A stretch of 64,000 nucleotides of DNA from an uncultured Sphingomonadaceae bacterium. Its GTDB lineage: Bacteria; Pseudomonadota; Alphaproteobacteria; Sphingomonadales; Sphingomonadaceae. The notes beneath the pieces were generated by a model. That model ran no database searches, was not told where the DNA came from, and saw only the letters and a list, made by a program, of their open reading frames with translations. Positions 667 to 6,960 of the stretch are shown here, piece after piece. A program made the translations under genes and the position numbers. The stretch spans positions 1,787-65,786 of the forward strand of contig CAXTNX010000007.1 of assembly GCA_964245815.1 (NCBI GenBank), written 5' to 3'. Positions within the stretch are counted from its first letter, which is position 1, and the number at the start of each line of letters is the position of its first letter.

Positions 667-979
667 CGATCGTCTCCCCGGTCCTGACGGCGACGCGGAC
701 CTTCTTGCCGTCCTTCATCTCGAACCGCACGCGCGTCGGCTTGCCGTCCGCCGTCGCGATCGCGACCTTGCTGACGTGCATCGGTGCCTCGATCTTCTCG
801 AGACCGCCCTGCGGATTGGCCTGGGTCGGCTTGCGATGCCGCGTCGCCACGTTGATGCCCGAGACGACGACCTTGCCGTCCTTGGGCATCGCGCGCGCGA
901 CCGTGCCGGTCTTGCCCTTGTCCTTGCCGCTGAGGACGACGACCCTGTCGCCCTTCTTGATCTTCAATGCGCTCATCAC
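659..979 (-). CDS. rplX: 50S ribosomal protein L24
   Basis: [23 protein letters not shown] motif; operon position. Confidence 0.98.
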
Positions 980-1344
980 AGCACCTCGGGCGCGAGGCTG
1001 ATGATCTTCATGTGATTGCGCGCGCGCAGCTCACGGACCACCGGACCGAAGATACGGGTGCCGATCGGCTCCTCGTTCTTGTTGACGAGGACGGCGGCGT
1101 TGCCGTCGAAGCGGATGGTCGAGCCGTCCGCGCGATGGATGTCCTTGGCGGTGCGGACGATGACGGCGCGATGGACGTCGCCCTTCTTCACCTTGCCGCG
1201 CGGCGCCGCTTCCTTGATCGACACGACGATGATGTCGCCGACCGTCGCGAATCGACGCTTGGAGCCGCCGAGCACCTTGATGCACTGGACGCGCTTGGCA
1301 CCCGAATTGTCGGCGACGTCGAGGTTGGACTGCATCTGGATCAT
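976..1344 (-). CDS. rplN: 50S ribosomal protein L14
   Basis: [17 protein letters not shown]...[11 protein letters not shown]. Confidence 0.99.
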
Positions 1345-1358
1345 CTGTCAGTCCTCCT

Positions 1359-1631
1359 TCAGGCGTTGTCGGTGGGGATCGGGACGGCGATCTCGGCGCC
1401 GATGCGGCCGATCGCCTTCCAGGTCTTGAGCTTCGAGATCGGCGCGCACTCCTCGATGCGGACGGTCTCACCGGTGTGATACTCGTTCGCCTCGTCGTGC
1501 GCGTGATACTTCTTCGACCGCTTGATGATCTTGCCGTAGAGCGCGTGGCTCACACGACGCTCGACGGAGACGATCACGGTCTTGTCGGTCTTGTCGGAGA
1601 CCACCGTTCCGGTCAGCACGCGCTTCGGCAT
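1359..1631 (-). CDS. rpsQ: 30S ribosomal protein S17
   Basis: [18 protein letters not shown]...KKYHAHDE. Confidence 0.98.
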
Positions 1632-1644
1632 CGCTGGTTGCTCC

Positions 1645-1863
1645 TTACTTCTCGGCCGAGGCGGCGCGAGCCACCTGGGCGGTCTTGATGCGGGCGATCG
1701 TGCGGCGGACCACGCGAACGCGGCTCGGCTTCTCGAGCTGGCCGGTCGCGGCCTGGAAGCGCAGGTTGAACTGCTCGCGCTTCAGCTCGGAGAGCTGGGT
1801 CGACAACTGGTCGTCGGTCGCGACCTTGATGTCGTCCTTCTTGGCGCTGTCCTTCTTCGCCAT
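1645..1863 (-). CDS. rpmC: 50S ribosomal protein L29
   Basis: [20 protein letters not shown]...RRTIARIKT. Confidence 0.97.
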
Positions 1864-1866
1864 GGC

Positions 1867-2304
1867 TCAGACCTCCGCAGTCAGATGGCTGAAGTCGCCG
1901 AGACGGGCGACGACCTTGACCTTGATCGGCAACTTCTCGGCGGCGCGGCTGAACGCCTCGGCGGCGAGCGGCCCGGCGACGCCCTCGAGCTCGAACAGGA
2001 TGCGCCCCGGACGCACACGCGCCACCCAGAATTCGGGTGCGCCCTTGCCCGAGCCCATGCGGACCTCGGCGGGCTTGGACGAGACCGGCACGTCCGGGAA
2101 GATGCGGATGTGGAGGCGGCCCTGGCGCTTGATGTGACGCGTGATCGCACGGCGCGCGGCCTCGATCTGGCGCGCGGTGATCCGCTCGGGCTCCATCGCC
2201 TTGAGGCCATAGGCGCCCTGGTTGAGCGTGGCGCCGCTCTTGGCGTCGCCGTGGATGCGACCCTTGTGGGCCTTGCGGAACTTGGTTCGCTTCGGTTGCA
2301 GCAT
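1867..2304 (-). CDS. rplP: 50S ribosomal protein L16
   Basis: [11 protein letters not shown]...EVRMGSGKG. Confidence 0.99.
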
Positions 2305-2364
2305 GTTCTTCTAACCTTCAAACACCGCGCGGGAGGCGGCCGATAAGGCGATGAGGGGTGACCC

Positions 2365-3060
2365 TCAGCGCGCCGGCCGAACCCCCGAGGTCTGTGCTTC
2401 CATCATCAGGCGATCCTGGGCGAGCGGATCGTGGCCGAGGATCTCGCCCTTGAAGATCCACACCTTGACCCCGCAGACGCCATAGGCGGTGTGCGCCTCG
2501 GCCTCGGCATAGTCGATGTTCGCACGCAGCGTGTGCAGCGGCACGCGGCCCTCGCGATACCATTCGGTCCGCGCGATCTCCGCGCCGCCGAGACGGCCGG
2601 CGCAGGTGATGCGGATGCCCTCTGCCCCCAGGCGCAATGCCGACTGCACCGCACGCTTCATCGCGCGGCGGAACGCGACGCGACGCTCGAGCTGATCGGC
2701 GACCGACTGGGCGACGAGCTTGCTGTCGATCTCGGGCTTGCGGATCTCGACGATGTTCAGCGACACGTCGGCCGAGGTCATCTTGCCGAGCTGACGGCGC
2801 AGCTTCTCGATGTCCGCGCCCTTCTTGCCGATGATGACGCCGGGACGCGCGGCATAGACAGAGATGCGCGCCAGCTTGGCCGGGCGCTCGATCACCACCT
2901 TCGAGATCGCCGCCTGCGGCAGCGACTTGAAGATGTGCTGGCGGATGCGGAGATCCTCGAGCAGCATGCGGCCATATTCGGCGCCGTCGGCGTACCAGCG
3001 GCTGTCCCAGGTCCGGTTGATCTGGAGACGCATGCCGATCGGATTGGACTTGTGACCCAT
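2365..3060 (-). CDS. rpsC: 30S ribosomal protein S3
   Basis: Real start [12 protein letters not shown] at 3060 within the long ORF 2365..3990; [14 protein letters not shown] motif. Confidence 0.98.
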
Positions 3061-3437
3061 TATTCGGCCTCCTGCTCGCGCACGACGATGCGCAGCCGCG
3101 AGAACGGCTTGACGATGCGGGCCGAACGGCCACGCGCTCGGGTGGCGAAGCGCTTCATGACGAGGCCCTTGCCGACCGACGCTTCCTTGACGATCAGCGC
3201 GTCGACGTCGAGATTGTGGTTGTTCTCGGCGTTGGCGATGGCGGACGCGAGGCACTTGCGCACATCGACCGCCATCGACTTGGTCGAGAACTGGAGGATG
3301 TTGAGCGCTTCGCCAGCCGGCTTGTTGCGGATCAGGCCCGCGACGAGGTTGAGCTTGTACGGGCTGCCGCGCACCGAGGTGGCGACCGCAAGCGCTTCCT
3401 TGTCGCCGACCTTGCGCGGGGATGCGGACTTGGACAT
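3060..3437 (-). CDS. rplV: 50S ribosomal protein L22
   Basis: [24 protein letters not shown] motifs. Confidence 0.98.
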
Positions 3438-5506: not shown

Positions 5507-6397
5507 TCAGCCTTCCTTGCCGGTGGAGCCGGAGTCATCCGGGGTGCCGATCCGGTCGGTCGCGTCGGTCGGCGGTGCATCGGGATCGACGACGCCGGCG
5601 CCATGCGCATCGGCCTCGGCCACGCCGGCGGCGACCTCCTCGGCCGACGGCAGCGCCGGGATCTCGTGGACCGCGGCGTCGTCGACCAGACCCGCGGCCG
5701 CATGCTCGACGATCGGCGCGCGACGATCGAGCAGCGCGGCCGGGAACGGCACGCCCTCGGGCAGATCGACCTTCACAGCGTCCTTGACGAACAGCCAGCC
5801 GCCCTTGGAGCCGGGCACCGAGCCCTTGACGAAGAGCAGGCCACGCGCCGCGTCGGTGCGCACGATCTCCAGATTCTGCTGGGTGCGGCTCTTGTCACCC
5901 ATGTGACCGGCCATCTTCTTGTTCTTGAAAACCTTGCCCGGATCCTGGCGCTGGCCGGTCGAGCCGAGCGAACGGTGCGAGACCGAGACGCCGTGGGTGG
6001 CGCGCAGACCGCCGAAGCCCCAGCGCTTCATGCCGCCCTGGAAGCCCTTGCCCTGGGTGCGCCCCTGGATGTCGACGAGCTGACCCGCGATGAAATGATC
6101 CGCCGAAAGCTCCGCGCCGACATCGAGGAGATTGTCCTCGGTCACGCGAAACTCGGCGAGGATCGCCTTGGGCTCGACCTCGGCCTTGCCGAAATGGCCG
6201 CGCTCGGGCTTGCTCAGGTTCTTGACCTTGGCCACGCCCGCGCCGAGCTGGACGGCGGTGTAGCCGTCGCGCGCCTCTTCTCGCCGGGCGACGACCTGGA
6301 GCGCGTCGAGCTGCAACACGGTGACGGGCACGTGACGGCCGTCCTCCTGGAACAGCCGGGTCATCCCCATCTTCTTCGCGATCACGCCAGTGCGCAT
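5507..6397 (-). CDS. rplC: 50S ribosomal protein L3 with long acidic C-terminal extension
   Basis: [28 protein letters not shown] motifs; about 70-75 extra D/E/A/P-rich residues after VKGSVPG...KDAVK. Confidence 0.98.
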
Positions 6398-6449
6398 CGC
6401 CTACTCCTCAAACAGAGGCTCCTCCGGCATCCTCGGGAGCGTGCCAACG

Positions 6450-6477
6450 AAAAAGGCCCGCGGACCTCCGCGAGCCT
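6450..6477 (-). terminator. Intrinsic terminator/attenuator-like hairpin between rpsJ and rplC
   Basis: Minus strand AGGCTCGCGG-AGGT-CCGCGGGCCT followed by TTTT; 10-bp stem containing one G:U pair. Confidence 0.55.
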
Positions 6478-6489
6478 CCGGCCACATGA

Positions 6490-6604
6490 AAGACAGCCCC
6501 CGCCAGGGCCGGTGTTCCGCATCGCTGCGAATGGCGGGGACTCGGGCACCAGCGGAACTGGTCGGTATCCCTGTCTTCGTCGGGTCGACCTCCGGGTCGA
6601 TCCG
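6490..6604 (-). promoter_or_regulatory. Candidate structured cis-regulatory RNA in the rpsJ-rplC spacer
   Basis: Nested inverted repeats AAGACAG/CTGTCTT (6490-6496 with 6571-6577), CCCCGCCA/TGGCGGGG (6498-6505 with 6532-6539), GGG(A)TAC/GTGCCC, plus hairpin 6581-6604. Confidence 0.5.
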
Positions 6605-6648
6605 AAACGCGGTCTTGGTGAATCACCTCGTCCGCGGGAGCCGGCGCA

Positions 6649-6960
6649 CTACGCCAGTTTGATCTCGACCGCAACACCTGCCGCGAGATCGAGCTTCATC
6701 AGCGCGTCGACCGTCTGCGGGGTCGGCTGGACGATGTCGAGCAGGCGCTTGTAGGTACGCACTTCGAACTGCTCGCGCGACTTCTTGTCGATATGCGGCC
6801 CGCGGTTGACCGTGAACTTGTCGATGTGCGTGGGCAGTGGGATCGGACCACGGATCAGCGCACCGGTGCGGCGCGCGGTATCGGCGATCTCGCCGGTCGC
6901 CTGATCGAGCACGCGATGATCGAAGCCCTTGAGGCGAATGCGGATATTCTGCGTGTCCAT
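6649..6960 (-). CDS. rpsJ: 30S ribosomal protein S10
   Basis: Start [11 protein letters not shown] at 6960; [18 protein letters not shown] motifs. Confidence 0.99.

Follow-up and report, generated by a model that had tools for sequence, protein, structure and literature searches.

Why are the ribosomal protein (r-protein) genes rpsJ and rplC separated by 251 nucleotides (nt; positions 6648-6398, minus strand) in the genome of an uncultured Sphingomonadaceae bacterium, represented here by a 64,000-nt stretch of contig CAXTNX010000007.1 (assembly GCA_964245815.1; hereafter the window)? The minus strand of the window carries fusA (10450-8333), tuf (8258-7068), rpsJ (6960-6649), the spacer, rplC (6397-5507), rplD, rplW and rplB. 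An earlier reading of the sequence alone (the original prediction) had remarked on the length of this spacer, which our measurement bears out, and had proposed that it encodes a ribosomal-leader-like RNA with a terminator. We find that the spacer is a structured, cis-regulatory leader RNA, real and well supported, which lies directly upstream of an r-protein gene and has a conserved structure with covarying helices, as is generically the case for r-protein leaders. It belongs to the known class of r-protein leaders and attenuators, and its most likely function, judging from position, architecture and precedent in Escherichia coli, is autogenous control of the genes from L3 onward.

The spacer folds with a minimum free energy (MFE) z-score of -2.5, beating 199 of 200 dinucleotide shuffles (1/200 folds as well), and is single-copy in the window's own genome. 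A covariance model (R1) built from 18 sequences and spanning 213 positions gave one full-length match in 224 of 301 Sphingomonadaceae genomes, representing 91 of 112 genera, and no match in about 398 genomes sampled evenly across the other families of Alphaproteobacteria; in 16 genomes from sister families of the same order, rpsJ and rplC lie 2-11 nt apart. Within the window's genus, BLASTN found the spacer in 15 of 21 other genomes; five that matched neither by BLASTN nor for rpsJ were checked, and all are incomplete assemblies. An exact three-block pattern (GGGATACCG..GTCCCC..GCCCNGRCGGGG), run against one genome per species for 185,579 species, matched at least 119 loci. The 80 records listed were all Sphingomonadales or metagenome-assembled genomes labelled only Alphaproteobacteria, Proteobacteria or Pseudomonadota, and the taxa among the matches listed were Sphingomonas, Sphingobium, Novosphingobium, Erythrobacter, Altererythrobacter, Qipengyuania, Croceicoccus, Zymomonas, Stakelama, Parasphingopyxis and other Sphingomonadales. 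Both flanking genes were present at 114 of the 119 pattern loci among the matches listed and at 219 of 225 of all loci collected, and copy number was one in the window's own genome and in all relatives with a match except one. The model's distribution, the pattern scan and the flank counts together make the element a trait of Sphingomonadaceae (in the GTDB sense) with one copy per genome and a fixed position. A scan of Rfam 15 (4227 families) with permissive filters returned nothing in the window's spacer at E<=10, and the homologous loci of five relatives in other genera likewise gave nothing at E<=1, in agreement with the original prediction, which could name no RNA family; the literature searched in full text contained no motif sequence and no rplC leader for Sphingomonadaceae. 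The element is therefore apparently an undescribed RNA family restricted to Sphingomonadaceae.

Base pairing was assessed in two alignments, one of 82 terminator-less sequences (A3) and one of 46 terminator-class sequences including the window (A4). In A3, 90.9% of cells were paired versus 80.0% after shuffling, and sliding the partners by 1-3 columns reduced pairing to 53% or less; in A4, 90.2% of cells were paired versus 79.9% after shuffling, and in neither alignment did any of 500 shuffles reach the observed value. The two architectures share one core, and the order from 5' to 3' is GGGAUACCG, P2, P3 with P3a in its loop, the pseudoknot, P5, CCUCUG, the Shine-Dalgarno (SD) sequence and the rplC start (Table 1). 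GC-rich sequence folds well, and some relatives carry inserts resembling repetitive extragenic palindromes (REP) in the upstream part of the spacer, observations that might suggest a chance fold or a mobile repeat. We give that explanation virtually no credence and regard it as already refuted by the present data, given one copy per genome, a fixed position, covariation, and structure measures above all 500 shuffles. The original prediction had itself raised a known repeat family as one outcome that would undo it, and the single copy in the window's own genome speaks otherwise.

Table 1. Positions of leader elements, candidate control signals and neighbouring features in the window
Feature	Sequence	Position	Strand	Basis or remark
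Terminator after tuf (predicted, intrinsic)		7056-7017 (hairpin 7056-7024)	-	14-bp stem, 13 GC pairs, T-run
BoxA-like element (candidate)	GGCUCUUUCAGAUCGGU	6984-6968	-	ends 8 nt before rpsJ ATG
Predicted -35 box	TTGCGG	6669..6674	-	in last rpsJ codons (GGT GTT GCG G..)
Predicted -10 box	TAGTGC	6646..6651	-	overlaps rpsJ stop TAG (6651-6649)
5' stem-loop, GAUUC apical loop	CCGCGGAC..GGUGAUUCACC..GACCGCG	6608..6637	-	leader 5' end
Variable hairpin	CGGAUCGACC CGGA GGUCGACCCG	6581..6604	-	lineage-specific; in MFE fold
Invariant junction segment	GGGAUACCG	6563..6571	-	conservation in both alignments
P2 hairpin	ACCAG-UUCCG-CUGGU	6548..6562	-	6562-6558 with 6552-6548
P3, 5' strand	UCCCCGCC	6533..6540	-	pairs with 6504-6497
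P3a hairpin	UUCGCAGCGAUGCGGAA	6515..6531	-	inside P3 loop; variable length and sequence
Pseudoknot, 5' strand	CCGGCC	6507..6512	-	3' end of P3 loop; pairs with 6483-6478
P3, 3' strand	GGCGGGGG	6497..6504	-	pairs with 6540-6533; covariation
Pseudoknot, 3' strand	GGCCGG	6478..6483	-	directly 5' of terminator stem
Leader terminator (predicted, intrinsic)	AGGCUCGCGG-AGGU-CCGCGGGCCU + U5, then CGUUGG	6450..6477	-	sequence, MFE fold, relatives; 10-bp GC-rich hairpin 6477-6454, U-run 6454-6450, conserved CGUUGG 6449-6444
P5 hairpin	GCUCC...GGAGC	6418..6440	-	covariation
Invariant anti-SD-like segment	CCUCUG	6418-6413	-	adjoins P5; can pair with SD GAGGAG
Shine-Dalgarno sequence	GAGGAG	6409-6404	-	rplC ATG at 6397

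At the junction segment, GGAUACCG is invariant in 46 of 46 terminator-class sequences, with the leading G kept in at least 90%, and GGGAUACC is invariant in the 82 terminator-less sequences, with the final G kept in at least 90%. RNAalifold pairs the GGGAU of this segment with GUCCC, and GGG:YCC is paired in 74-100% of cases. Because all bases involved are invariant, covariation cannot choose between GGGAU and the GGGG of P3 as the partner of GUCCC, and the two pairings may be a real conformational alternative. Double changes occur at six of six P2 pairs in A4 and at five of six in A3. The P3 helix, (U)CCCCGCC/GGCGGGG(G) in the window, shows a double change at one of eight pairs in A4, where GCC/GGC becomes GUC/GAC (CG:28, UA:17); in terminator-less genera it extends to 13 base pairs (bp; UGCGUCCCCCGUC with GACGGGG-C-GACGCA), with double changes at 4/13 in A3. 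Within its loop, P3a differs widely in length among relatives and covaries at all five of its pairs in A3.

The end of the P3 loop, with the consensus (A/G)GCCC, pairs in turn with GGGC(U/C) downstream of P3. This helix was also found independently by RNAalifold and shows double changes at four of seven pairs in A4 (one pair being AU:24, GU:12, GC:8) and two of six in A3. P3 and this helix both covary, and the core is an H-type pseudoknot, whose loop lengths appear sterically plausible. Upstream of the core, the sequence is less constant: Sphingomonas-type relatives carry a hairpin in the place of the 5' stem-loop, with other stems and a retained GA(A/U)UC centre, and where the window has its variable hairpin (9 bp with one A-C mismatch) relatives have another one.

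These alignments recast the fold that had originally been drawn. The hairpin at 6581-6604 exists, and the helix called P3 was correct and is supported by covariation, but the three-way junction into which P3 had been built is wrong in two of its three helices. Pairing of its P1 (AAGACAG/CUGUCUU) is confined to the window and the nearest relatives, with 28% of cells paired among the 46 terminator-class sequences, below the shuffles. Of its P2 (GGG(A)UAC/GUGCCC), the GGG:YCC portion holds; the remainder was mis-registered, and half of it conflicts with the covarying ACCAG/CUGGU. The covariation that the original prediction looked for in aligned spacers is thus present in P2 once re-registered, P3, the pseudoknot and P5, and missing from P1. 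The pseudoknot, the P5 hairpin, the invariant CCUCUG and the promoter-like element over the rpsJ stop had not been part of it.

Two lineages elaborate on this plan. Most species of the window's genus (L004-L006, L008-L013) carry a P2 insertion with GUAUCCC, a perfect complement of the invariant GGGAUAC, which yields an alternative hairpin competing with P2. Erythrobacter-type loci (e.g. L085, L155, L162, L204) have a second conserved module 60-120 nt upstream of the core, after rpsJ, composed of a covarying hairpin GGUCC..GGACC, UUAAAC, and a hairpin GGGGCUCC-UAU-GGCCCCGC; this module could represent a further promoter or an additional domain of the RNA.

The 3' part of the leader reaches the rplC ribosome-binding site (RBS). 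P5 covaries at seven of nine pairs in A4 and eight of ten in A3, and is kept in a genus without the core (L020). In both alignments the adjoining GCCUCU shows little or no variation, and CUC/GAG-type pairing is 99% paired without variation in A3; CCUCUG would sequester the SD. Leader peptides were considered and rejected: the AUG at spacer positions 162-164, opening a 28-codon frame that ends 3 nt before rplC, is not conserved, and the frames beginning at the P5-loop AUG of terminator-less genera are not conserved when compared by eye.

Between the pseudoknot and P5, the window holds the 10-bp hairpin and U-run that had been described before rplC (6477-6450), with the U-run 52 nt before the ATG. 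A GC-rich stem-loop adjoining a U-tract is, by its sequence, an intrinsic terminator. At this position nearly all terminator-class relatives form a stable hairpin (about -12 to -25 kcal/mol) whose stem differs in sequence and runs into U4-6, and the canonical form, an 8-10-bp GC-rich stem, U4-6 and CGUUGG, occurs in Sphingomonas, Zymomonas and several other genera. The pseudoknot 3' strand adjoins P5 directly in about half of the sequences; in the rest a hairpin is inserted between the two, and in some genera the inserted hairpin lacks a U-run. Judged by these comparisons, the predicted terminator is a lineage-specific module and not part of the ancestral core.

Use of these signals can be followed in a relative. 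Zymomonas mobilis carries the element (loci L073 and L140), and transcription start sites (TSS) and 3' ends of strain ZM4 have been mapped under six conditions (PMC7566282, Data Set S1 and Data Set S3). We placed ZM4 coordinates on L140, in which the 57-nt terminator of Data Set S3 is identical and the rplC start at 520782 is reproduced; placement of the upstream ZM4 sites assumes no insertions or deletions between the two. TSS_1110, at 520478 in six of six conditions (PMC7566282), falls 11 nt after the rpsJ stop, behind TTGAAG-N17-TAATAA plus 7 nt, the architecture predicted for the window promoter. TSS_1115, at 520593, is the strongest 5' end of the region (839-3324 reads, six of six conditions; PMC7566282) and falls 9 nt upstream of GGGAUACC, that is, before the core. 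The 3' ends TERM_0521-0524 at 520733-520736, which the authors assigned to PreTerm_420 (GCTCCTTCGTC-attcg-GACGTAGGAGC-tttt) (PMC7566282), lie in the U-tract of the terminator homologous to that of the window, 46-49 nt before rplC, and were seen in one to three of the six conditions. The terminator of the leader is used in vivo in Zymomonas, where leader RNAs of ~144 and ~259 nt are made. Read-through must occur because the downstream genes are essential, and the Zymomonas site acts as an attenuator or partial terminator. The original prediction had pointed to a 3' end near 6450; the mapped ends agree with it at the homologous U-tract of the relative (PMC7566282), rather than in the window organism itself, for which we infer promoter and terminator use from the shared sequence and the Zymomonas maps.

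Recurrent 3' ends are also present inside the Zymomonas leader core (TERM_0518-0520, ZM4 520642-520645), directly after CCCCGCCU and homologous to a site just after the P3 5' strand, with TERM_0519 in five of six conditions. Possible causes are pausing, processing or an exonuclease stop.

An abundant RNA of ~144 nt would be expected from TSS_1115 (up to 3324 reads) and the terminator ends, raising the idea that core and terminator form a stand-alone small RNA (sRNA), derived from the 5' untranslated region or independent, that acts in trans and lies before rplC incidentally. We think this very unlikely: in the genera without a terminator, about half of all, the RNA is continuous with the rplC mRNA, the element is not found elsewhere in the genomes, and its conserved 3' part (P5 and CCUCUG) touches the rplC RBS.

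In the window, the promoter-like pair is TTGCGG-N17-TAGTGC, which places the predicted leader start at ~6642-6638; a simple scanner called no promoter there. Many Sphingomonas-type relatives have the rpsJ codons GGT GTT GAT/GCG followed by TAA plus GAG, AGG or TAG, giving -10 boxes of TAAGAG, TAAAGG or TAATAG, and all 27 sequences with GTGTTG(A/C)(T/G)GT in rpsJ stop at TAA or TAG versus 79 of 118 others. In loci with inserts between rpsJ and the leader, many of them REP-like palindromes, the boxes within rpsJ have decayed (GTC for GTT, stop TGA), and a second box pair (GTGTTGCG-N17-TATAGG or TGGACA-N17-TAAAGG) immediately precedes the same 5' hairpin of the leader. As a promoter test, synonymous-site constraint in the 3' part of rpsJ was rejected, being circular by class definition and otherwise not significant.

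Several species (L004, L006, L016, L017, L080, L161, L171, L193, L200, L201 and L206) have palindromic units resembling REP or miniature inverted-repeat transposable elements (e.g. TCCCCGGCGAAGGCCGGGGTCCAGG ... CCCGGCTTTCGCCGGGA) inserted after the rpsJ stop and ahead of the leader promoter, with the boxes relocated downstream of the insert in L004 and L006.

We consider it somewhat more probable than the opposite that the element is an r-protein leader combining transcription attenuation with translational control of the rplC-rplD-rplW-rplB... part of the S10 operon. Transcription would start at the promoter whose -10 box lies over the rpsJ stop, with a possible contribution from rpsJ read-through, to give a leader RNA comprising the 5' stem-loop, the core (GGGAUACCG, P2, P3/P3a and the H-type pseudoknot), a terminator in some genera and P5 in all. 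An excess r-protein of the operon would bind the pseudoknotted core, and binding would favour termination at the U-tract (~6450), a closed P5/anti-SD state that blocks rplC initiation, or both. The outputs would then be termination where the lineage has a terminator and masking of the RBS by P5 and CCUCUG in all lineages. We infer that the effector is an r-protein and that the response runs in this direction; L4 would be our guess by analogy, with L3 as the alternative. Synthesis from L3 onward would in this way be controlled apart from S10/NusE, with rpsJ under its own BoxA-like element. The core of the original prediction, a ribosomal-leader-like RNA with a terminator downstream of rpsJ, has gained family-wide covariation and the Zymomonas 3' ends, and the uncoupling of S10/NusE that it suggested fits the Zymomonas start after the rpsJ stop and the BoxA-like element before rpsJ.

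Several observations weigh against leader-mediated attenuation and r-protein binding. Attenuation cannot be the ancestral mode, since about half of the genera lack the terminator. A search for an antiterminator, pairing either terminator arm with upstream or downstream segments, gave only species-specific matches of 4-7 nt, none conserved, and no more than 2 nt of the terminator base are shared with the pseudoknot. Because of these two results, any link between binding and termination would have to resemble the pause-stabilising mode of L4 and NusA rather than strand exchange as in riboswitches. The window's own -10 box, TAGTGC, is weak. The sequence conservation of the core is riboswitch-like and also fits a small-molecule ligand. 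Mimicry of rRNA was not detected: the invariant blocks have no copy at <=1 mismatch in the 23S, 16S and 5S region of a congener, which was used because the window's own assembly (90 contigs, 2.8 Mb) lacks rRNA genes, with no detectable 16S or 23S rRNA signature sequences. Two candidate mimics were rejected, one of 23S H89-H91 (three collinear 7-mers, including H90-H91), which came from a hand-made consensus, is absent in the window and is at chance level, and one of the H20 hairpin of the H18-H20 junction (AGUCCC(C)G), a 6-7-mer at chance level that is likewise absent in the window.

The failure to find an antiterminator would suit a passive element without a ligand, namely one in which a strong internal promoter, a stabilising 5' structure and a partial terminator jointly fix the ratio of S10 to L3-onward mRNA, or one that is an RNase processing site. 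So would a promoter that overlaps the rpsJ stop, a Zymomonas TSS in six of six conditions with terminator 3' ends in one to three of six, and the extra processing-type 3' ends at 520642-520645 inside the Zymomonas RNA. A passive spacer would have no need to preserve, across 91 genera, a 9-mer and an anti-SD that are both invariant and a pseudoknot that covaries, and the core is kept in genera that lack the terminator, with a fixed position before rplC and a conserved contact with its RBS; we consider such an element unlikely.

The absence of detectable rRNA mimicry is in turn compatible with a riboswitch-like sensor of a small molecule or alarmone (e.g. a nucleotide, a polyamine or (p)ppGpp) that would adjust the synthesis of r-proteins in place of an r-protein operator. 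Blocks invariant throughout the family (GGGAUACCG, GUCCCC and GCCC-GGRCGGGG), an aptamer-like pseudoknotted core joined to exchangeable expression platforms (terminator plus SD hairpin, or SD hairpin alone), and the two alternative pairings of GUCCC (GGGAU or GGGG) all point the same way. Yet the element has a single copy per genome, always in front of rplC and in no case upstream of genes for metabolism or transport, no known riboswitch class in Rfam matches it, and the characterised leaders of such operons all bind r-proteins (PMC3616713, PMC7247131), making a sensor of this kind quite unlikely. Autogenous control by an r-protein remains the reading that we prefer.

The rplC product itself was examined for a connection with the leader. 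L3 of the window has 296 amino acids (aa) and an acidic, Ala/Pro-rich C-terminal tail of ~70 aa (5507-5720, minus strand); as a co-evolving partner of the leader this tail was rejected, because L3 length varies order-wide (240 to 299 aa) independently of the presence of the leader.

Upstream of rpsJ, the short spacer after tuf corresponds to the position of the E. coli S10 leader and holds a terminator and a BoxA-like motif instead. The sequence GGCUCUUUC(G/A/U)CAUCGGU is nearly invariant at the same position across Sphingomonadaceae, and its likeness to BoxA is illustrated by UGCUCUUUUGG and UGCUCUUUUGGCG in a congener's rrn leader. A role in the autoregulation of Nus factors has been proposed for BoxA sequences that precede their genes, rpsJ of a few Gammaproteobacteria among them (PMC5725501); the literature examined describes no BoxA-type rpsJ autoregulation in Alphaproteobacteria. 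By its sequence, the element before rpsJ is a candidate site for autoregulation by NusB and S10 (NusE). The tuf terminator lies ~60 nt before rpsJ, and its Z. mobilis homologue has mapped 3' ends (PreTerm_417-419). With this terminator directly before it, rpsJ seems to need read-through or its own promoter. The BoxA-like element and the tuf terminator suggest that rpsJ is its own small unit between two control elements.

Regulatory sites between r-protein genes are known from E. coli, in which the S7 site lies between rpsL and rpsG (str operon) and the S8 site at rplE (spc operon), both short rRNA mimics that act on translation within a polycistronic mRNA. The present element resembles them as a regulatory RNA between two r-protein genes of a conserved cluster that would control the downstream genes, and differs in its length of ~240 nt, its predicted own promoter, its own terminator in the window's lineage and the lack of detected rRNA mimicry. 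Pseudoknotted translational operators occur in the E. coli S15 rpsO, S4 alpha-operon and L20 rpmI leaders. An H-type pseudoknot close to the RBS of an r-protein gene is common to these and to our element, which has no sequence relation to them and in which P5 sets the pseudoknot apart from the SD, with a terminator in addition in the window's lineage.

The closest functional parallel by gene cluster is the E. coli S10 leader (the L4-interacting RNA of Zengel and Lindahl), through which L4 causes NusA-dependent termination and translational repression (PMC3616713) and whose type is restricted to Gammaproteobacteria (PMC3616713). Both elements have a terminator near the first regulated gene, an RBS hairpin and the potential for dual control of transcription and translation. 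The E. coli leader stands upstream of rpsJ, whereas the present element lies downstream of it, leaving S10 outside its control, and has a pseudoknotted core and a terminator that is optional among genera. We found no sequence or structure homology to the E. coli leader (hairpins HD, HE and HG), a result based mainly on the differing architecture and lineage. Among 20 r-leader candidates, Eckert and Weinberg (2020) described an L2 leader preceding rplB in Alphaproteobacteria and an L4 leader preceding rplC in Archaeoglobi, and nothing for Sphingomonadaceae or the rpsJ-rplC position (PMC7247131). Like those two, the present element is an r-leader candidate of the S10 cluster from comparative genomics, the Archaeoglobi leader also being upstream of rplC; unlike them, it belongs to another lineage, has another structure and has no match in Rfam 15.

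Autogenous leaders of r-protein operons are lineage-restricted, Alphaproteobacteria are poorly covered, and none has been described for the S10 cluster of Sphingomonadaceae. With more than 200 representatives, covariation, a pseudoknot and the Zymomonas 5' and 3' ends, the element is ready for Rfam curation and for tests of its effector, and Z. mobilis is a genetically tractable, industrially used relative. The element places a regulatory boundary of the S10 operon after rpsJ, which bears on the balance between the NusE role of S10 and ribosome production. We tentatively raise, at less than even chances, a rewiring into two sensors, with S10/NusE responding through the BoxA-like element and the L3-onward genes through a pseudoknotted RNA whose ligand is an r-protein or some other growth signal and which is fitted with exchangeable modules, one for SD masking in all genera and a terminator gained or lost between genera. 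Comparing genera that have the terminator with those that lack it gives a rare chance to see how attenuators evolve, and if the two-sensor arrangement is true, these lineages would be a natural series of a translational operator acquiring transcription attenuation.

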